This document shows positions 14,328 to 62,508 of a stretch of 64,000 nt of DNA, piece after piece. Origin of the DNA: Parcubacteria bacterium C7867-007 (GTDB taxonomy: Bacteria > Patescibacteriota > Minisyncoccia > Phycocordibacterales > Phycocordibacteraceae); the NCBI GenBank assembly GCA_001189195.1, contig LFCQ01000003.1:7059-71058 (forward strand), given 5' to 3'. The notes below the pieces were generated by a model, which was not told the DNA's origin, did not search any database, and saw only the letters and a list, made by a program, of their open reading frames with translations. Numbering within the stretch: the stretch's first letter is position 1; the number at the start of each line of letters is the position of its first letter. The translations under genes and the position numbers were made by a program.

Positions 14328-14398
14328 CGGGCCCACGAGGAATCGAACCTCGGCCGACGGTTTTGGAGACCGACGTTCTACCATTAAACTATAGGCCC
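14328..14398 (-). tRNA. tRNA-Trp (anticodon CCA)
   Basis: Cloverleaf GGGCCTATAGTTTAATGGTAGAAC…, anticodon loop CTCCAAA, T-arm CGAGGTTCGATTCCTCG, discriminator G. Confidence 0.85.
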
Positions 14399-14473
14399 TG
14401 TATAGGAACGATAGCAGAACCGTGCGCTACGGGCAAAGCTGCTTATTTGAGGTGGTACGATACAAGTAACAAT

Positions 14474-15430
14474 ATGGTGGCTAAACGCGCGCTTTTAAGT
14501 TTTGTTCTCTTTACTCTTGTTTCAGTGCCGCTTTCTGTGTTTGCTGCGGAGACAAGCTTCTTTGGTCCGATCATTCCTCAAGAAGGAGATAAGTGTTATT
14601 GCCCTGGTAAGGCAATGGACTGGGGGTGTGCACTCGAAGTGTTTCAGAATGTGTTGAACGCCCTAATTTCACTTGGAGTAGTAGCGGTGGTGTTTTTCAT
14701 CGGATGGGCAGGGTTCCTGCTTATGACGGGTGGATCAAATCCAGCAACACGCACGAAAGCAAAGAATCGTATGCTCAGTGGGGTGGTTGGCCTCGCAGTT
14801 ATTCTCGGCGCCTTCCTTATCGTTGATACGGTAATGAAGATCCTCTATAACCCAGATACTGCTCTTGAAAAAGGTACCTTCGGTCCTTGGAATGAGATTC
14901 TCTCTGGTGCAGAAGATAACTATTGCGTGGTTGTGAACGAGACTCCCGGTGTGCTGAATAATGGAAGTGTGATGGATATCATAAGCAACGCACTTAATCT
15001 TGGCACCACTAATTCATCAACCAAAGGTGCTGCCACCACTCCCGGTGGAACAATATCTGGAGGATATACCTATGATCCTGGTATTAAAGCCCAGACTGTT
15101 CATGCATCAGGTGAGCTCACCGCCCTGCTAAGTTGTATGAGACCAAAACTTCCCGCAGGTGTTGGTCGTATATCTTCGATCTCAGATAGTGCCATTGTGA
15201 ACGGAAGCAAAACCTTTAATAAGTGTGCAGCGTCAGGCTGTGCACACACCATTAATTCATGTCACTACGGAGGCAAAGCATGTGTGGGGCGCTCACTTGC
15301 TGTTGATTTTGGTGATGAAGACAATGCAAGCGTGCTTAAGGCAGCTGCTATTTCGTGTGGAGCAAACACAGCAGTGAATGAAGGCGATCACCTTCATGTG
15401 AGTGTGGGGAAGTCGTGTGGTTGTAACTGA
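14474..15430 (+). CDS. secreted pilin-like 2-TM module fused to a LAS-type (M15/M23-like) zinc peptidase-like domain; putative peptidoglycan peptidase
   Basis: Signal peptide with mature N-terminus AETSFFGPIIPQ…C.C. Then helix 1, the loop GGSNPATRTKAKNRM, helix 2, a Thr/Gly linker, and a C-terminal …SCHYGGKACVGRSLAVDFGDED…GDHLHVSVG (an H…D plus HxH zinc-ligand pattern). The start is moved to 14474 to avoid overlap with tRNA-Trp. Confidence 0.55.
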   Translation: MVAKRALLSFVLFTLVSVPLSVFAAETSFFGPIIPQEGDKCYCPGKAMDWGCALEVFQNVLNALISLGVVAVVFFIGWAGFLLMTGGSNPATRTKAKNRMLSGVVGLAVILGAFLIVDTVMKILYNPDTALEKGTFGPWNEILSGAEDNYCVVVNETPGVLNNGSVMDIISNALNLGTTNSSTKGAATTPGGTISGGYTYDPGIKAQTVHASGELTALLSCMRPKLPAGVGRISSISDSAIVNGSKTFNKCAASGCAHTINSCHYGGKACVGRSLAVDFGDEDNASVLKAAAISCGANTAVNEGDHLHVSVGKSCGCN

Positions 15431-16455
15431 TGTCGTACAATAGAAATACTTATATGGGAATGCGCGCTTTTCTTTTCTCTTCCAGTGCTGCAGCACTGGC
15501 ATCTGTGCCCTTTGCAGTCTTTGCGGCAGAGACAAGCTTCTTTGGTCCTATCATTCCACAGATTGGTGAGTGTGTATGCGAAGGAAGTGCAATGGATTGG
15601 GGATGTGTACTGGTTGTTGCGCAAGGATTTCTAGGAGCACTCGTTTCCTTTGGTGTTCTGGCAGTGGTCTTCTACATTGGCTATGCAGGCTTCACTCTTA
15701 TAACGAGTGGTGGTAACCCGGCAACCCGTACGAAAGCAAAGAATCGTATGCTCAGTGCCGTAGTTGGTCTCGCGGTTATTCTCGGGGCATTCCTTATCGT
15801 TGATACGGTAATGAAGATTCTCTATAACCCAGATACTGCTCTTGAAAGCGGCACCTTTGGTCCTTGGAATGAAATCTTTGTAGGAGGAGAAGAAAACTAT
15901 TGTGTTGCAGTGAATATGAATCCAGGTGTGCTGAATGATGGAAGTGTGGCAGACATTATAAGCAACGCACTTAATCCAGGCACCACTACCTCATCGACAA
16001 TGGGTGGAGGGACTGCTCCGTCAGGTTCAGGTGCTCCTAGCTCAGCGGGAGGAAGGTGTCAGGTTAAAACCAGTGGACCATGCGCAACCTCAAACTTCAC
16101 GGCAGCATTTGGTGCAGCGGCAGGTCAAGCCTCGCAAATCTGTTCTGCAGAAAGTGGTAACGGAACTCTTCTTGAAGGAGATAGAACCACTTCAGGCAAG
16201 CCGGTGTCGTTCGGACTCTTTCAGATTAATATAACGGCGCATCCTGTTGCTGGACTGCAGTGTCCAAAAGCATTTGATCGCTTGTTCACGGGGTCAAACA
16301 AGAACGTTAAAATACTAGATGCGGATCTCTATCAAAAGTGTAGAACGGCTGCTCTTAATAGTTCTAATAATGCAGCGGTTGCCGCTAAAATATTCAAGGG
16401 CGATAAAAATAGCTGGAGGCAGTGGAGTACCCGTAGAACGTGTGGATTACCCTAA
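15430..16455 (+). CDS. secreted pilin-like 2-TM module fused to a lytic transglycosylase (SLT/VirB1-like) domain
   Basis: TGATG overlap with the upstream gene. The mature N-terminus is identical to that gene (AETSFFGPIIPQ…) and it has the same GGNPATRTKAKNRM loop. C-terminal …CSAESGNG…SGKPVSFGLFQINIT… resembles the family-1 lytic transglycosylase catalytic motif (ES…GLMQ). Confidence 0.55.
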   Translation: MSYNRNTYMGMRAFLFSSSAAALASVPFAVFAAETSFFGPIIPQIGECVCEGSAMDWGCVLVVAQGFLGALVSFGVLAVVFYIGYAGFTLITSGGNPATRTKAKNRMLSAVVGLAVILGAFLIVDTVMKILYNPDTALESGTFGPWNEIFVGGEENYCVAVNMNPGVLNDGSVADIISNALNPGTTTSSTMGGGTAPSGSGAPSSAGGRCQVKTSGPCATSNFTAAFGAAAGQASQICSAESGNGTLLEGDRTTSGKPVSFGLFQINITAHPVAGLQCPKAFDRLFTGSNKNVKILDADLYQKCRTAALNSSNNAAVAAKIFKGDKNSWRQWSTRRTCGLP

Positions 16456-45891: not shown

Positions 45892-46422
45892 ATGCAAGTT
45901 ACTTCTACTGGTATCGCTGTGGCCCTTGCGGTCGTTGTGGCACTCGGGCTTCTTTTCTTTGGGCCTAGCGTGTTTGCTCCGTTCTCTTCAGAACCAGCGG
46001 CAACAGAGATGGAAATGATGCAGATGGCAACAACTACCGAATCCATGGATATAAATAATGAAGCAATGGGTGCATCAGCAGCAAATGCACTGCCAACTCA
46101 ATTCACCGTAACTGACGTTGTTGTTGGTACCGGTGCAGAGGCAACTGCAGGAAAAACAGTAACCGTTAACTATGTTGGAATGCTTCCAGACGGTACGGTC
46201 TTCGATGCGTCTGCAAATCATGGCACCACAGGTTTCAGCTTTCCTCTCGGTGCAGGTCGCGTCATTAAGGGATGGGATCAGGGTGTTGCGGGTATGAAAG
46301 TGGGTGGCAAGCGTCATCTCGTGATTCCTCCAGAGCTAGCCTATGGAAATCAGGCAGTGGGTGGAGTTATTCCTGCGAATGCAACACTCGTATTTGATGT
46401 TGAATTGGTTAACGTTCAGTAA
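45892..46422 (+). CDS. FKBP-type peptidyl-prolyl cis-trans isomerase (secreted)
   Basis: Signal peptide plus FKBP domain (…GWDQGVAGMKVGGKRHLVIPPELAYG…). Confidence 0.8.
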   Translation: MQVTSTGIAVALAVVVALGLLFFGPSVFAPFSSEPAATEMEMMQMATTTESMDINNEAMGASAANALPTQFTVTDVVVGTGAEATAGKTVTVNYVGMLPDGTVFDASANHGTTGFSFPLGAGRVIKGWDQGVAGMKVGGKRHLVIPPELAYGNQAVGGVIPANATLVFDVELVNVQ

Positions 46423-46438
46423 GAAAAGATAAGAAGAA

Positions 46439-46476
46439 GGACCCGGCACGAATGTGCGCCGGGTCCTTTTTGTTTG
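46439..46476 (+). terminator. rho-independent terminator after the FKBP gene
   Basis: ggacccggc…gccgggtcc hairpin followed by tttttgttt. Confidence 0.65.
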
Positions 46477-46491
46477 GTCGACCGAAACGAC

Positions 46492-47094
46492 CTAGTCAGG
46501 AGTTGTCGCAGCAGCCGTAGCCGGTGCGACCTTGATCCTGCCATTGGCTCCAGGAGCCTTCCCGCCGGTCACGACGAGGACGATCGCGCCAGGGAATTCC
46601 CCAGCGACGCGGTCCATCTTCTCTTTGGTGCAGGTGCCTTTGGCAGCACCTGCCGAGTTGGCCCCGGTCATGGCGCCAGCGACAACGCCGTTGGCGCCGC
46701 CAGCGACTGCGCCGTAGCCGCCGTATCCAGTGGCCGTCTTGGAGACGTACTTGACGCCGCCCTCGAGGCCCAAGCCACCGGAGACGGCGTATAGGCCGGC
46801 TCCATAGGCGCTGGATTGCAGCAGTCCGGCGACCTGTTGGTCGACGTCCTTGCTGCAGGTCACCGAATAGCGGACGGCGGTGTCGTACGCCAACTTCGGA
46901 ACGAGACGTTCCGGGTTCGCATTCGAACCGACCTTGCAGGTTCCGGTGACGAGGTCGCAGTCCTCGTGGCCGACGATGGCGTTTTGCGCCAGCGGGGCTT
47001 GCGAGTATCCTGCGAGCGGTGAGGTGGCGCAGGCCCCCACGGTCAGGGAGACCATGATCACCAGTGCCGTTGACATGATACGCATGTGGATCAC
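46492..47094 (-). CDS. lipoprotein with glycine-zipper (17-kDa-antigen/Gly-zipper_2TM-like) region, in a high-GC islet
   Basis: Signal peptide with lipobox-like LTVGAC. Gly/Ala-rich GxxxG repeats (YGAVAGGANGVVAGAMTGANSAGAA). The gene is >60% GC, against ~50% in its neighbours. Confidence 0.5.
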   Translation of the reverse strand: MIHMRIMSTALVIMVSLTVGACATSPLAGYSQAPLAQNAIVGHEDCDLVTGTCKVGSNANPERLVPKLAYDTAVRYSVTCSKDVDQQVAGLLQSSAYGAGLYAVSGGLGLEGGVKYVSKTATGYGGYGAVAGGANGVVAGAMTGANSAGAAKGTCTKEKMDRVAGEFPGAIVLVVTGGKAPGANGRIKVAPATAAATTPD

Positions 47095-58599: not shown

Positions 58600-58645
58600 G
58601 CGGGCCGTTAGCTCAGTTGGTAGAGCGCTTCATTTGCAATGAATA
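58600..58645 (+). pseudogene. truncated tRNA: 5' half of a tRNA-Ala(TGC)-like gene (acceptor 5' strand, D-arm, anticodon arm), no T-arm or 3' acceptor strand
   Basis: GCGGGCCGTTAGCTCAGTTGGTAGAGCGCTTCATTTGCAATGAA. A canonical D-arm and a 7-nt anticodon loop TTTGCAA are present. The downstream sequence runs straight into the ORF at 58656 with no T-loop. Confidence 0.4.
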
Positions 58646-58655
58646 AGTCAACAGG

Positions 58656-59111
58656 ATGAAAATTCATCTCGGGAAGCAACAATACCTTAAGTTACTAACT
58701 TTCATCTTTGGGTTTGCCTTGGTTATATTGGGTTTTTTCGTTGACAACCTTAAGGAATTCTCCGGTGTTGCAAGGATATTCTTTCCAGATGCATATTACC
58801 TAAACGAAGCGTTGGTGCATTTGGATTCCAAGAAAGATGTTCATGTCGGCGATCCGTCGTTCAAGTATGTGATTAAGCGGTGTGCGCCACCAGACTTTGA
58901 TTCGACGTTAGTAACGAGCTTTACAAAGGGCACTACAACTTATTACGTGACCTCGATGAGTCGTAAACCAGATTTTGGGATTCACGCACGGATTGGTGAG
59001 CTGACATCAGAGAGACCCATCTGCAACTCTCAAGCTCTTGAGGTGTCCGAGGACAAGATTTTGCTCTACGTCGGTCTACTTATTTCAATTGTGGGTTTTC
59101 TGATTAAGTAA
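58656..59111 (+). CDS. hypothetical membrane protein (N- and C-terminal TM helices)
   Basis: 151 aa in a low-GC region. No motif recognised. Confidence 0.4.
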   Translation: MKIHLGKQQYLKLLTFIFGFALVILGFFVDNLKEFSGVARIFFPDAYYLNEALVHLDSKKDVHVGDPSFKYVIKRCAPPDFDSTLVTSFTKGTTTYYVTSMSRKPDFGIHARIGELTSERPICNSQALEVSEDKILLYVGLLISIVGFLIK

Positions 59112-59221
59112 TTCCCTGCGAGGAGTGTGTGTAGCAGCTAATCATCATCACCAATGCCAGCGACAGCACCCCATAATTTGAGCTTCTTGCAGAAGCTCAT
59201 CTCAACTGGTTATAGTTAGGT

Positions 59222-59254
59222 ACACCCAATAAAACTTCAGTTTGTCACGGCGGC
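59222..59254 (+). repeat. direct repeat R1 (33 nt; partner at 60242-60274, 29 of 33 identical)
   Basis: aCACCCAATAAAAcTTCagTTTGTCACGGCGGC versus cCACCCAATAAAAaTTCgaTTTGTCACGGCGGC. Confidence 0.6.
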
Positions 59255-59284
59255 TCCTATCCCGTTTCCGCCACATATACAGAT

Positions 59285-59998
59285 ATGGAAATAAATCGAC
59301 AGGATTCCGAAAATTCGCATAAGGATAGCTACTCCTTCTGGCCCTTTGTAAGGGAGCGGCTATTTTCAATTTGTACTGCCTTACATGCGTGGGGGATCGG
59401 CCGATCTTTTGATAAGGTGATCGTGATTCTCACACTTGCTATTGCACTCATTAGCTTGGCTCTTTCCTATCAATCAGTCTTACTGGCTCGAGAGGCCGTT
59501 GATCTGTCAACGTCTCCACAGATTAATTACTATCTTCAGACGGAAGATTTGAATAGTGGTGAATATACTTTCGGCATTGAGAATAACGGCGTTATTTCTG
59601 TTCGCGATCTGTCTGTAAGTTACGTTACAACGGACATATACAAACGAGACTGCGACATAAAGAGAACACAAATAGTAATCTGCGGCGGCAGTTCTGCAGG
59701 TATGTCTAATGCTGTTCCTTCAAAAAAGAGCAAACTACAGCCGGGAGAAACTTTTACGTTTAAATTACTAACTGGTACATCACCCGACATGATCGTCGCG
59801 GTTTCTGTAGTGACTAATTACACTCGCAATGTGGACGGGCGCAGGGCGTCTGACCGAGTCACCTATTTCATTGATAACCACAGCGTGTATACGTTAGAAG
59901 CGATAAGGGATATACCAAGTATGCAAGCGTATATTGCTGCATTCCGCCAATTTTCAGCAGACAGCACGCTTGGAAATGAAAAGATCTATTGGCAATGA
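59285..59998 (+). CDS. hypothetical membrane-anchored protein
   Basis: 237 aa in a low-GC region, with one TM helix (VIVILTLAIALISLAL). Confidence 0.4.
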   Translation: MEINRQDSENSHKDSYSFWPFVRERLFSICTALHAWGIGRSFDKVIVILTLAIALISLALSYQSVLLAREAVDLSTSPQINYYLQTEDLNSGEYTFGIENNGVISVRDLSVSYVTTDIYKRDCDIKRTQIVICGGSSAGMSNAVPSKKSKLQPGETFTFKLLTGTSPDMIVAVSVVTNYTRNVDGRRASDRVTYFIDNHSVYTLEAIRDIPSMQAYIAAFRQFSADSTLGNEKIYWQ

Positions 59999-60026
59999 TT
60001 TAGACATTCCTACGCAGACTCATTCC

Positions 60027-60082
60027 CATACCAATCCTTCTTCAACCGCGTCACCCTCCGCTCCCAGTTGATGCGCCGTATG
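60027..60082 (+). repeat. direct repeat R2 (56 nt; partner at 61923-61978, 1 mismatch)
   Basis: CATACCAATCCTTCTTCAACCGCgTCACCCTCCGCTCCCAGTTGATGCGCCGTATG is repeated with a single g/t difference. Confidence 0.7.
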
Positions 60083-60241
60083 GCTGCATGGCCCGGATTT
60101 GGAGGACGCTCTGGGGGCGTAGGAGGGATGAACGGAGGAAGTCGATCGAGAATGAGCGGGTCCTGTACGCACTTGTCCATAATTCCCGTCACCAGTTCTG
60201 AAATCTGCTCTCGCTCTGTTCGAACGTGTGCATGACTCGGT

Positions 60242-60274
60242 CCACCCAATAAAAATTCGATTTGTCACGGCGGC
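60242..60274 (+). repeat. direct repeat R1' (copy of R1) followed by a terminator-like hairpin
   Basis: See R1. It is followed at 60268-60290 by cggccc-ttg-ggccg and a T-rich tract. Confidence 0.6.
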
Positions 60275-60518
60275 CCTTGGGCCGCTTTGTGCGTTATATA
60301 AGAACTCCACACGTACCGAGCATCTATTGAACTGCGTGTGAACAAGCGCAAACGACCATTTCTGACGCTAAAAGGCCGCAGTACTTGACTTTATATATGA
60401 ACCGGAAGTATTATTTCAATGTCAGTTCACGCAGATAGCTATTCTGATGAATAAACAAAGGGTTTTATACGGGACGCCCTAAAAAGAAATAGTCTCGAAT
60501 TATAAAAGTACTTTCTAC

Positions 60519-61100
60519 ATGAGCACTCTCACACCTCAGCAGATGAAGGAAATGATTCAGGCATCGGAACAAGCTGTTTCCGGTATGCAGGATGAAAGCC
60601 TCAAGCGTGCAGCATTTGAAGCGATCTTGTCCCGCTTGTTGAGCGGCGATACCCCGAGTCCAACTGGACCCGTTCGAAAGCAAAAAAAAGCGGCCAGTAA
60701 GCGAAAACCAGGAACAACTAACCCTGGCTCAGGTCGTGTTCGTGCAGCAACACGTATTTCATCCCTAGAGCTCGATGCCGCCCAACTGAAGGCGCTTAAA
60801 GAATTCTATGACCACTATGCTCCCGATGGGCAAGAGGAGGCCGTATTCACACTCGCTTACTTTGCACACGATAAACTAGCAATGAAGCAGTTTCAGGATG
60901 TCGATCTACACCGGCTCTATACGACCCTACTATCATTGAAACCAACAACCAAACCACCCTCGATGTCCGCTGAAGAGGTGACACGCGCTTCCCGTTGGCT
61001 GGTTGCCCCTAGTCGAAAGAAGCAGTGGCTCAAAAGTGTCGGGGAAGGAATATTTGAAGTCAGTCCGCACGGAATGCTGCGTATGACCTACGACGCATAA
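60519..61100 (+). CDS. hypothetical protein (cassette gene A), basic central linker
   Basis: 193 aa, 7 bp upstream of gene B. The cassette is flanked by the R2 and R2' repeats. Confidence 0.45.
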   Translation: MSTLTPQQMKEMIQASEQAVSGMQDESLKRAAFEAILSRLLSGDTPSPTGPVRKQKKAASKRKPGTTNPGSGRVRAATRISSLELDAAQLKALKEFYDHYAPDGQEEAVFTLAYFAHDKLAMKQFQDVDLHRLYTTLLSLKPTTKPPSMSAEEVTRASRWLVAPSRKKQWLKSVGEGIFEVSPHGMLRMTYDA

Positions 61101-61107
61101 GCTCTCG

Positions 61108-61845
61108 ATGATCAATTCTCCGATCGAATTCTTGCAGGCTGTCGATGCCGAATTGAAGAACGCTGTTGAGCGCGCGCGTGCCATTCTTTGGTATGCCAGT
61201 TCGAGAAGCCAAAGCGAAGGGCTCACCACAGCAGAAATTACGGACGTAATGGAGACTGCTGGTCATGCCAAGCAGAACAGAGCGCGGCTTGATACGCTTC
61301 TCACTCGGGATAAGAGATACATAAACCGAGTTCCAGGTCGCTCACAATGGCGACTCAGTGCCGTTGGAAAGCGTGAGCTTGATCCTGTGTATAGAACAGT
61401 TTCTCCGACACCGGTAACGATTGTTGTAACCGACAGCGTCCTACCTCGTGCTCTTGTTACAGGAACACGCGGTTATATTGAGAAGGTTACTCACCAAATC
61501 AATGGGTCGTACGACTGCGGACTGTATGATGCGTGCAGTGTGATGTGCAGGAGACTCTTGGAAACTCTGATTATCGAGGTATATGAACAAGCTGGCAGGA
61601 CCGATGAGATAAAAGGGGTCGACGGGAACTTCTTAATGTTCTCCGGCCTACTGGACGTTTTCGAAAAAGACAAAACGTTCACCCTCAGTCGAAATGGGAC
61701 CAAGGGATTGAGTGACTTCAAGTCTCTAGGTGACCTATCCGCACACAGTCGTCGATACAATGCCCTAAAGGCTGATATTGATCGAGTGCAAAGCGGTCTT
61801 CGTGTTGCGGTCGAAGAACTATTGCATCTAGCTAAACTCAAGTAA
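61108..61845 (+). CDS. hypothetical protein (cassette gene B): predicted winged-helix N-terminus and DUF4145/HEPN-like helical C-terminus
   Basis: N-terminal …LTTAEITDVMETAGHAKQNRARLDTLLTRDKRYINRV… (wHTH-like). C-terminal …CRRLLETLIIEVYEQ…FKSLGDLSAHSRRYN… resembles the (R/K)xLGNxAAH pattern of DUF4145/HEPN-type domains. This is inference without a database search. Confidence 0.45.
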   Translation: MINSPIEFLQAVDAELKNAVERARAILWYASSRSQSEGLTTAEITDVMETAGHAKQNRARLDTLLTRDKRYINRVPGRSQWRLSAVGKRELDPVYRTVSPTPVTIVVTDSVLPRALVTGTRGYIEKVTHQINGSYDCGLYDACSVMCRRLLETLIIEVYEQAGRTDEIKGVDGNFLMFSGLLDVFEKDKTFTLSRNGTKGLSDFKSLGDLSAHSRRYNALKADIDRVQSGLRVAVEELLHLAKLK

Positions 61846-61922
61846 GAGGTACGTGAAAGACGTCTCTACCACTTGAACTGCATCTCTATCGGGATTTAGG
61901 CAGCCTCTCCTCTATCCTTCTC

Positions 61923-61978
61923 ATACCAATCCTTCTTCAACCGCTTCACCCTCCGCTCCCAGTTGATGCGCCGTATGT
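61923..61978 (+). repeat. direct repeat R2' (copy of R2)
   Basis: See R2. Confidence 0.7.
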
Positions 61979-62022: not shown

Positions 62023-62481
62023 TTGTTAAAACCAAAATACTATTGTATAAAGTACTCGGCACAGGGGAGAGCTGCAATGATTGAAATAGAGCACGGCTTC
62101 ATTTCCTTCAAAGGACTTGAAGTACTACCGAACACCAAGATATACCTTGACCCCGAACCGCAAGGGAGAGCATTCCGGACGGGTCGTGTGGGTCGTCCAC
62201 GGAAGTCGGAAGTCCTTCATCCACCACACTTCTACATGTCGTTCGTGGTGGAGTGCAACGGTCAGACTGAGCGTATTGAGCACGAGGAGTTGATTCCCTT
62301 CACCTTCTTCCCGCTCACACACGATGTCTGTATCTGCATCACATACCGTAGCCAGACCGTGTTCTTTGCACTCTCTATCAGCAAGAAGCAAAGTCTCAAA
62401 GTGAAAGGGGAGGAAGACATCTTCCTTGAGGTTGCTTTGTCCTGGGAACAGGCAAAGAACTTCTTTCAGGTGATTCGCTAA
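62023..62481 (+). CDS. hypothetical protein
   Basis: 152-aa ORF (the start may be the internal Met at 62077), followed by a strong terminator. Confidence 0.35.
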   Translation: MLKPKYYCIKYSAQGRAAMIEIEHGFISFKGLEVLPNTKIYLDPEPQGRAFRTGRVGRPRKSEVLHPPHFYMSFVVECNGQTERIEHEELIPFTFFPLTHDVCICITYRSQTVFFALSISKKQSLKVKGEEDIFLEVALSWEQAKNFFQVIR

Positions 62482-62508
62482 CTATCGTGCGAGCACTAAT
62501 ACTGCAAC

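Follow-up and report, generated by a model that had tools for sequence, protein, structure and literature searches.

We analysed a stretch of 64,000 nucleotides (nt) from Parcubacteria bacterium C7867-007 (contig LFCQ01000003.1, positions 7,059 to 71,058), hereafter called the window, which exhibits a pair of adjacent genes, A and B, that probably work as a toxin-antitoxin-like or abortive-infection module. Both genes lie on the forward strand and the stop codon of A is separated from the start codon of B by 7 nt (TAA-GCTCTCG-ATG). The product of gene B is 100% identical to the NCBI entry AB202_00375 of the same organism. With a codon adaptation index (CAI) of 0.61, A lies below the 22 long genes of the window used as reference (0.71±0.035), and B, at 0.57, lies lower still. 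The codon usage of both genes is foreign. A sigma-70-like sequence upstream of A (TTGACT-18-TATTAT) matches the consensus at 10 of 12 positions. The number of such matches is not above shuffle expectation and this one is a candidate only. No terminator was found 3' of B before position 62506. The coordinates of these and the other features are given in Table 1.

Table 1. Features at and around the A-B gene pair (positions are those of the window; aa, amino acids; ORF, open reading frame; AF2, AlphaFold2)
Feature	Position	Strand	Remark
Gene A	60519..61100	+	ORF, 193 aa; partner of B, putatively its antitoxin, an adaptor or a sensor
A residues 6-41, N-terminal helical hairpin	60534..60641	+	AF2 helices 6-20 and 26-41
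A residues 42-85, basic disordered linker	60642..60773	+	10 K/R against 1 D/E
A residues 86-193, C-terminal winged-helix domain	60774..61097	+	
Gene B	61108..61845	+	ORF, 245 aa; winged helix and HEPN, putative RNase effector
B residues 1-96, winged helix-turn-helix	61108..61395	+	
B residues 118-245, HEPN (DUF4145-like)	61459..61842	+	R148, R149, E152 and K205-x7-H213-x-R215-R216
Sigma-70-like promoter candidate	60385..60414	+	upstream of A
Small gene, 79 aa	60010..60249	-	D1 is its 3' end, D2 its start and upstream region; outside the A-B module
Direct repeat D1, left copy	60020..60082		3' end of the intact small gene
Direct repeat D1, right copy	61915..61977		3' remnant of another small-gene copy
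Direct repeat D2, left copy	59219..59267		what is left of the 5' part and upstream region of a small-gene copy
Direct repeat D2, right copy	60239..60287		start codon and upstream region of the intact small gene
tRNA-Ala(UGC) 5' fragment	58602..58666	+	left edge of the variable region, directly after ddl; Rfam tRNA 24.1 bits (gathering score 29)

The structure of the B protein was predicted by AF2 with a predicted local distance difference test (pLDDT) score of 92. Its N-terminal part is a winged helix and its C-terminal part exhibits the all-alpha HEPN fold with the four-helix core. Against the Pfam model of DUF4145 (PF13643), the B sequence of the window obtains 13.2 bits (E-value = 0.096), which is below the gathering cut-off of 23.1 bits, and a relative from the short class described below (locus L056) obtains 18.8 bits against the same cut-off. 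Weak matches to DUF4145 are found in 26 of 30 B homologues (best E-value 8e-5) and matches to MarR_2 in six of the 30. Given these homologue matches, the assignment of a DUF4145-type domain to B appears to be right. A search of PDB sequences with a profile of B gave no match even at E-values up to 10, and a Foldseek search of PDB gave no match at E-values up to 0.1, exhibiting HEPN/Csm6 trends only.

The HEPN domain of B carries the motif K205-S-L-G-D-L-S-A-H213 followed by S-R-R, and the residues R148, R149 and E152 are located on an earlier helix. We counted residue conservation over 345 unique relatives of B, the denominators varying by position. H213 and E152 are invariant (337 of 337 and 341 of 341 relatives, respectively), R148 is present in 341 of 342, and R215 in 325 of 337. 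K205 is kept in 328 of 338 relatives (arginine in 7) and D209 in 323 of 338 (asparagine in 12). These six polar residues are 96-100% conserved in a family that otherwise diverges to less than 40% identity. The canonical Rx4-6H catalytic motif is not found in B. RAZR is a DUF4145 RNase of which the catalytic residues R146 and H154 have been validated experimentally (PMC13017515), and the spacing between K205 and H213 of B is the same as that of this pair. The glycine, alanine and histidine positions of the B motif fit the DUF4145 type, in a comparison made through the residue numbers of RAZR and the DUF4145 consensus. From these sequence features we infer that B probably possesses a DUF4145-type active site with conservative arginine-to-lysine and asparagine-to-aspartate changes.

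The A protein was modelled by AF2 from 76 sequences (pLDDT 80). The model comprises an N-terminal helical hairpin, with a block (A21/D25/L28) that the A subfamilies have in common, a linker predicted to be disordered (pLDDT<50 for residues 47-73), and a C-terminal winged-helix domain (pLDDT>90). A winged helix with a disordered linker is found in many type II antitoxins. No match of A to a nucleotidyltransferase was obtained in Pfam, NCBIfam or PADLOC, its folded domain being the winged helix. An alignment of the A profile with the B profile by hhalign did not detect any shared winged-helix homology. An earlier note, made from the letters of the window alone, had described two tightly linked genes with a 7-bp spacer, a strongly basic linker in A, and a B protein that begins with a winged helix and ends in a DUF4145/HEPN-type region. 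All this holds: both ORFs are real, the quoted motifs are present, and the domains agree with the DUF4145 and MarR_2 matches of the homologues. The same note found no recognisable domain in A, a statement that has to be given up in view of the C-terminal winged helix of the AF2 model.

Homologues of B are numerous. We obtained 1372 in a collection at 90% identity, and in a representative library at 50% identity 1197 clusters at E-values up to 1e-3 (409 at E-values up to 1e-30). Homologues of A amount to 15 close ones, and to 115 by profile search. Scanning a single genome for each species provided 80 loci. Loci and contigs are denoted by L numbers in what follows. Full-length B sequences are found in Peribacteria, Saccharibacteria and other Patescibacteria, in Acidobacteriota, Gemmatimonadota, and Alpha-, Beta- and Gammaproteobacteria, and in Actinomycetota, Planctomycetota, Verrucomicrobiota, Ignavibacteriales, Cyanobacteria and others. 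The A-B pair occurs in more than ten phyla, among them three lineages of the candidate phyla radiation, and its distribution is patchy.

In a hidden Markov model scan, every locus that has a B homologue of at least 45% identity together with upstream DNA exhibits an A-like ORF directly 5' of B. The gaps between the two ORFs range from -4 to +31 nt (35 loci), and one copy is frameshifted. The operon proposed in the earlier note is thus kept across loci, and a small bicistronic operon with tight coupling and conserved pairing is what is generally expected of a type II toxin-antitoxin system. Between subfamilies, B keeps about 50-57% identity while A falls to 14-18%: A diverges and is exchanged far faster than B. 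The A protein of the window represents a minority type among the A subfamilies. In more distant B clades, the upstream partner follows the same plan: it starts with a strand/helix motif, continues with a linker of low complexity and ends in a winged helix that can be aligned with A. At two loci (L102, 8001-9833; L104, 8001-9850), we find three-gene operons with a close homologue of the window-type A (about 50% identity), a protein denoted A' (168-174 aa) and a B-like protein of 242 aa. A short class of HEPN-only proteins (170-172 aa) keeps the B motif and is always located 3' of a DUF5343 protein (L049-L091, e.g. L056, 9245-10447). Lastly, a homologue of the window-type A (about 50% identity) is found at L093 (10001-11363) with a 256-aa protein that exhibits a canonical RNSAGH HEPN motif, is annotated in the precomputed Pfam data as PF27235 AF_1680, and adjoins a large serine recombinase. 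An alignment of this 256-aa protein with the B profile by hhalign did not reveal any significant relation, and we treat it as analogous to B rather than as its homologue. Such a modular, partner-swapping pattern is typical of conflict systems.

Two loci of this survey exhibit unusual arrangements. At L039 (9104-10447), an ORF of 447 aa has an integrase-like N-terminal part that continues in frame into the C-terminal HEPN half of a B homologue, which is 66% identical to B residues 97-244. The fusion suggests an integration event that truncated B. At L092 (1-13046), a pair of A and an AF_1680-type protein is flanked on either side by a segment of about 5 kb that is duplicated in inverted orientation, with SWIB, histidine kinase and response-regulator genes mirrored in the two arms. 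The inverted repeat is either genuine or an artefact of the assembly.

The reading that we favour, and to which we would give an even chance, is that A and B constitute a horizontally transferred two-component module, similar to toxin-antitoxin or abortive-infection systems. The HEPN domain of B would dimerise to form a metal-independent RNase site with H213, K205, D209, R215/R216 and R148/E152, and the N-terminal winged helix would tether B to nucleic acid or to A. The A protein, co-translated with B from one operon, would be the cognate inhibitor, adaptor or sensor, its hairpin and linker and/or its winged helix holding B inactive. When A is lost, displaced or titrated, through infection by a phage or mobile element or through loss of the operon, B would be freed, cut RNA and cause growth arrest. 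The analysis establishes the structure of the genes, the folds, the conserved residues, the strict synteny, the fast divergence and exchange of A, the patchy occurrence across phyla and the foreign codon usage. We infer the RNase activity, the interaction between A and B, the toxicity, the trigger and any anti-phage effect.

The same two proteins might instead be nucleic-acid-binding regulators of transcription or RNA fate, acting on the island or on the host, with A as a co-regulator and the HEPN-like part of B as a non-catalytic module for dimerisation or ligand sensing. Non-catalytic HEPN-like domains have precedents in MtlR and Roquin. Still, the strict conservation of the six polar residues of B in a diverging family is what one typically sees at an active site, none of the neighbouring genes at the A-B loci stands out as a conserved target, and a conflict system accounts better than a regulator for the patchy distribution, the low CAI and the swapping of partners. 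We therefore consider a regulatory role unlikely.

Several observations weigh against the toxin-antitoxin-like or abortive-infection-like module. In B, a lysine stands in place of the canonical HEPN arginine and an aspartate in place of the asparagine, so that catalysis is not assured, and because of the lysine the RNase activity is offered as a prediction only. A simple type II toxin would not usually carry a winged helix of its own, as the effector B does. Palindromes with arms of 6-9 bp occur upstream of the pair about once per 300 nt, which is close to chance, and we dropped them as candidate operators for this reason. The 148 neighbouring genes of 33 loci are mostly housekeeping or metabolic genes by Pfam, with IS110 found twice. 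The PADLOC matches among these neighbours are all singletons (SoFic, mad2/3/8, PDC-S04, PbeA, a Cas3/DpdF-like helicase and mREase_IV) and do not indicate a clear enrichment of defence genes. A tblastn search with B did not detect any homologue on 72,556 plasmids or in 50,697 phage records, a blastn search of plasmids with the 4.1-kb region of the window gave no match, and IMG/VR provided a single match to B, of the short class. Homologues lying consistently outside defence or mobile contexts had been named in the earlier note as evidence against its own proposal of a defence module, and the predominance of housekeeping neighbours is in part of this kind.

Some loci present a different picture. 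The pair of L001 is found among genes for a relaxase, a protein similar to type IV coupling proteins, a serine recombinase, an integrase and a transposase. The pair of L104 adjoins genes of a type I restriction-modification system, a ParB-methyltransferase and a serine recombinase. In Parahalioglobus pacificus KCTC 23430 (L030, 9071-10928), the A-B pair is the sole content of an islet of 1831 bp with no integrase inside, the ends of which are formed by a perfect 27-nt direct repeat corresponding to the 3' end of tRNA-Asp(GTC). This repeat is similar to an att duplication, the islet resembling a cis-mobilisable element. Several loci are clearly mobile or linked to restriction-modification; as to the defence module proposed in the earlier note, the homologues are not consistently located in defence islands. 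The family is a chromosomal, patchily distributed and horizontally mobile gene pair without a clear guilt-by-association link to defence.

In the window, the earlier note had placed the two genes exactly between direct repeats of 56 nt. The repeat (D1) is real. It extends over 63 nt with 95% identity, including a 52-nt core with one mismatch, and none of 100 shuffled sequences gave any match. Its left copy ends 437 nt before the start of A and its right copy starts 70 nt past the stop of B, offsets that make the word "exactly" rather loose. A second direct repeat, D2 (49 nt, 80% identity), which had escaped the earlier note, completes a layout of the form D2-ORF237-D1 ... D2-A-B-D1. Both repeats are parts of a small minus-strand gene. 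D1 encodes IRRINWERRV(T/K)RLKKDWY, the C-terminal end of its 79-aa product. This product exhibits a proline-rich middle and a basic C-terminal helix (IRRINWERRVKRLKKDWY), and has no match in Pfam or PHROG. The window contains one intact copy of the small gene, a 5' remnant (left copy of D2) and a 3' remnant (right copy of D1), and the cargo genes ORF151, ORF237, A-B and ORF152 are interleaved with these copies. Relatives of the small gene (50-93% amino acid identity over about 76 residues) are found on five metagenome contigs (L096-L100), apparently from related Parcubacteria, in comparable variable regions. The 79-aa gene may mark or mediate the exchange of cassettes.

The repeats of the window are the result of reiteration of, or recombination at, this host small gene and do not represent the ends of A-B. 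D1 and D2 are absent from all other A-B loci, which rules them out as A-B cassette ends. They fold no better than shuffled sequences (z-scores from -0.55 to +0.48), which rules out structured RNA or attC-like sites. A decayed pseudogene is ruled out as well, the 79-aa ORF being a conserved intact gene. Nor is the arrangement an integron gene cassette, as D1 and D2 are not attC sites and consist of coding and upstream sequence of a minus-strand gene. Among the ORFs of at least 40 aa between 57000 and 64000, nothing of the size of an integrase was found apart from ddl and a glycosyltransferase gene, and the main ORFs scanned in the same interval gave no integrase match in Pfam.

The left edge of this variable region is marked by the tRNA-Ala fragment of Table 1. 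It comprises the 5' strand of the acceptor stem, the D arm and the anticodon arm, and lacks the T arm and the 3' strand. The acceptor stem is unpaired and ARAGORN makes no call. An intact tRNA-Ala(UGC) is found at the equivalent position in two of the related contigs (L096, 3663-3738; L097, 3880-3954). The syntenic region of the relatives harbours different cargo beside the small gene, including a NERD/SEC-C protein and a protein weakly similar to GmrSD_N. The mobile hotspot postulated in the earlier note is supported by this tRNA-Ala-linked variable region, by the differing cargo and by the low CAI. The other hotspot ORFs, at 58656-59111 (ORF151, 151 aa), 59285-59998 (ORF237, 237 aa) and 62023-62481 (ORF152, 152 aa), have no match in Pfam or PHROG. 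ORF151 and ORF237 exhibit hydrophobic, transmembrane-like segments. Their CAI is low (0.62 and 0.60, respectively), and that of ORF152 (0.67) is nearer to the norm given above.

Elsewhere in the window, two direct repeats, one of 300 nt (79% identity) and one of 59 nt (83% identity), are found between 14522-14959 and 15502-15936, about 977-980 nt apart. They correspond to a tandem gene duplication, with the adjacent paralogous ORFs 14363-15430 and 15430-16455. A peak of GC content (0.57 against about 0.48 for the window) at 46001-47000 overlaps a minus-strand ORF (46492-47094).

Flanking repeats are also found at L014 (17 and 32 nt) and at L001 (195 nt, derived from a partial duplicate of B), where they are 1.74-1.94 kb apart. 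Direct repeats of 17-63 nt at a distance of about 1.74-1.94 kb surround the pair in 4 of about 33 loci. These repeats, the large serine recombinases adjacent to the pair in L001, L093 and L104, and the presence of winged helices in both proteins would agree with a role of A and B as mobility factors, i.e. DNA-binding architectural or directionality proteins for site-specific recombination by an integrase acting in trans. This role is, however, very improbable in our opinion. In most loci, no flanking repeat exceeds chance. The repeats of the window are parts of the host small gene and do not recur at any other A-B locus, and there is no recombinase that accompanies the pair consistently. To our knowledge, the HEPN domain has no role in recombination.

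A purely selfish addiction module, of which the loss kills the cell and which has no role in defence against phages or plasmids, is a more serious contender, though one that we hold to be rather unlikely. The pair is often the sole foreign-looking cargo between housekeeping genes: it is located within a hyp operon in L006-L011 and between S1 and RbfA in L004. It also lies beside TruB in L002. The 1.83-kb islet of L030 with its att-like tRNA repeats and no integrase, together with the lack of enrichment of defence neighbours, points in the same direction. This explanation shares its molecular mechanism with the module that we favour and differs only in the selective benefit. On the other hand, addiction modules usually abound on plasmids, and the family is absent from the plasmids searched. 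Moreover, the equivalent hotspot of related Parcubacteria carries the NERD-like and weakly GmrSD_N-like cargo. In a further reading, A-B would be a self-contained cassette of about 1.8 kb without an integrase, which spreads among the phyla through capture at the 3' ends of tRNAs or genes by trans-acting recombinases and encodes an unrecognised form of immunity, in which two winged-helix modules, one belonging to a fast-evolving sensor and the other to the effector, jointly read nucleic acid or protein of the invader and release a non-canonical Lys-His-Arg HEPN RNase. Such a scheme seems distinctly improbable to us.

HEPN RNases recur as effectors in bacterial immunity and in toxin-antitoxin systems. 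The B clade is without a family model, a name or a paper, although it amounts to about 1,200 clusters (at 50% identity), keeps the conserved K-x7-H-x-R-R site and is in every case paired with a winged-helix partner. If A and B are indeed a toxin and its inhibitor or an abortive-infection system, a winged-helix inhibitor without a retron would be a new type of partner controlling HEPN nucleases, and the swapped partners would provide a natural series for studies of specificity. A conflict module would also be documented for Parcubacteria, Peribacteria and Saccharibacteria, whose genomes are reduced and have few known defence systems. The pair is directly testable, as it is present in the cultured species Hydrogenophaga palleronii, Luteimonas granuli, Rhodanobacter soli, Lacimicrobium alkaliphilum, Parahalioglobus pacificus and Nocardiopsis yanglingensis.

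The earlier note could not name a described system of this composition, and neither can we. A and B have no match in PADLOC (E-values up to 1), NCBIfam or PHROGs and none above threshold in Pfam, and our search of the accessible literature did not find a paper describing the A-B architecture, also among those on DUF4145, any that mentions DUF5343, or relevant work on HEPN in Patescibacteria. The HepT-MntA system (HEPN-MNT, type VII toxin-antitoxin) is characterised by a nucleotidyltransferase partner, neutralisation by AMPylation and the Rx4-6H motif. In contrast, A is not a nucleotidyltransferase, which excludes neutralisation by AMPylation, and the motif of B is K-x7-H. The pair of DUF5343 and short HEPN proteins is widespread and is also undescribed. 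Its HEPN protein exhibits 47-53% identity to B residues 98-245, keeps the K..GD.SAH.RR motif and, unlike B, has no winged helix of its own. The upstream DUF5343 partner (220-245 aa) is similar to A in having a winged-helix-like segment and a disordered linker, and exhibits a conserved C-terminal motif, INLxVHISxDAxPDQIDxIFxSMAKHIY.

BxaP (PMC10799925) and Ishtar1 (bioRxiv 10.64898/2026.07.06.735840) share with B a DUF4145/HEPN domain as the presumed RNase module, acting there against phages or plasmids. Unlike A-B, they are monogenic, and their HEPN domain is N-terminal and fused to other partners (a HEAT-like or beta-rich C-terminal domain). The closest relative of B by domain is RAZR/PD-T7-4, a divergent DUF4145-type HEPN effector that is monogenic, combines a Cys4 zinc ribbon with a catalytic arginine and follows abortive-infection logic (PMC13017515). 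Its R146-x7-H154 corresponds to K205-x7-H213 in B. B differs from it by the N-terminal winged helix, the lysine in place of the arginine and the obligate upstream partner, and the PADLOC model of PD-T7-4 does not match A-B.

A two-gene pairing of a HEPN protein with a winged-helix protein, the HEPN again being non-canonical, is known from the type IX retron Retron-Kva2. In that system, the winged-helix protein by itself mitigates the toxicity of the HEPN nuclease, the active site of which it encloses (bioRxiv 10.64898/2026.07.14.738597), and the HEPN protein lacks the canonical Rx4-6H motif (bioRxiv 10.64898/2026.07.14.738597; PMC7736814). The gene order of A-B is reversed, the winged-helix protein coming first, and B itself carries a winged helix. 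No reverse transcriptase is encoded among the neighbours in the window or the called genes of L001, L002, L004, L005 and L006, Rfam detects no non-coding RNA between 58000 and 64000 other than the tRNA fragment, and the PADLOC retron models do not match A-B. The HEPN and winged-helix pair of the type IX retron is the closest mechanistic precedent for the proposed A-B module.

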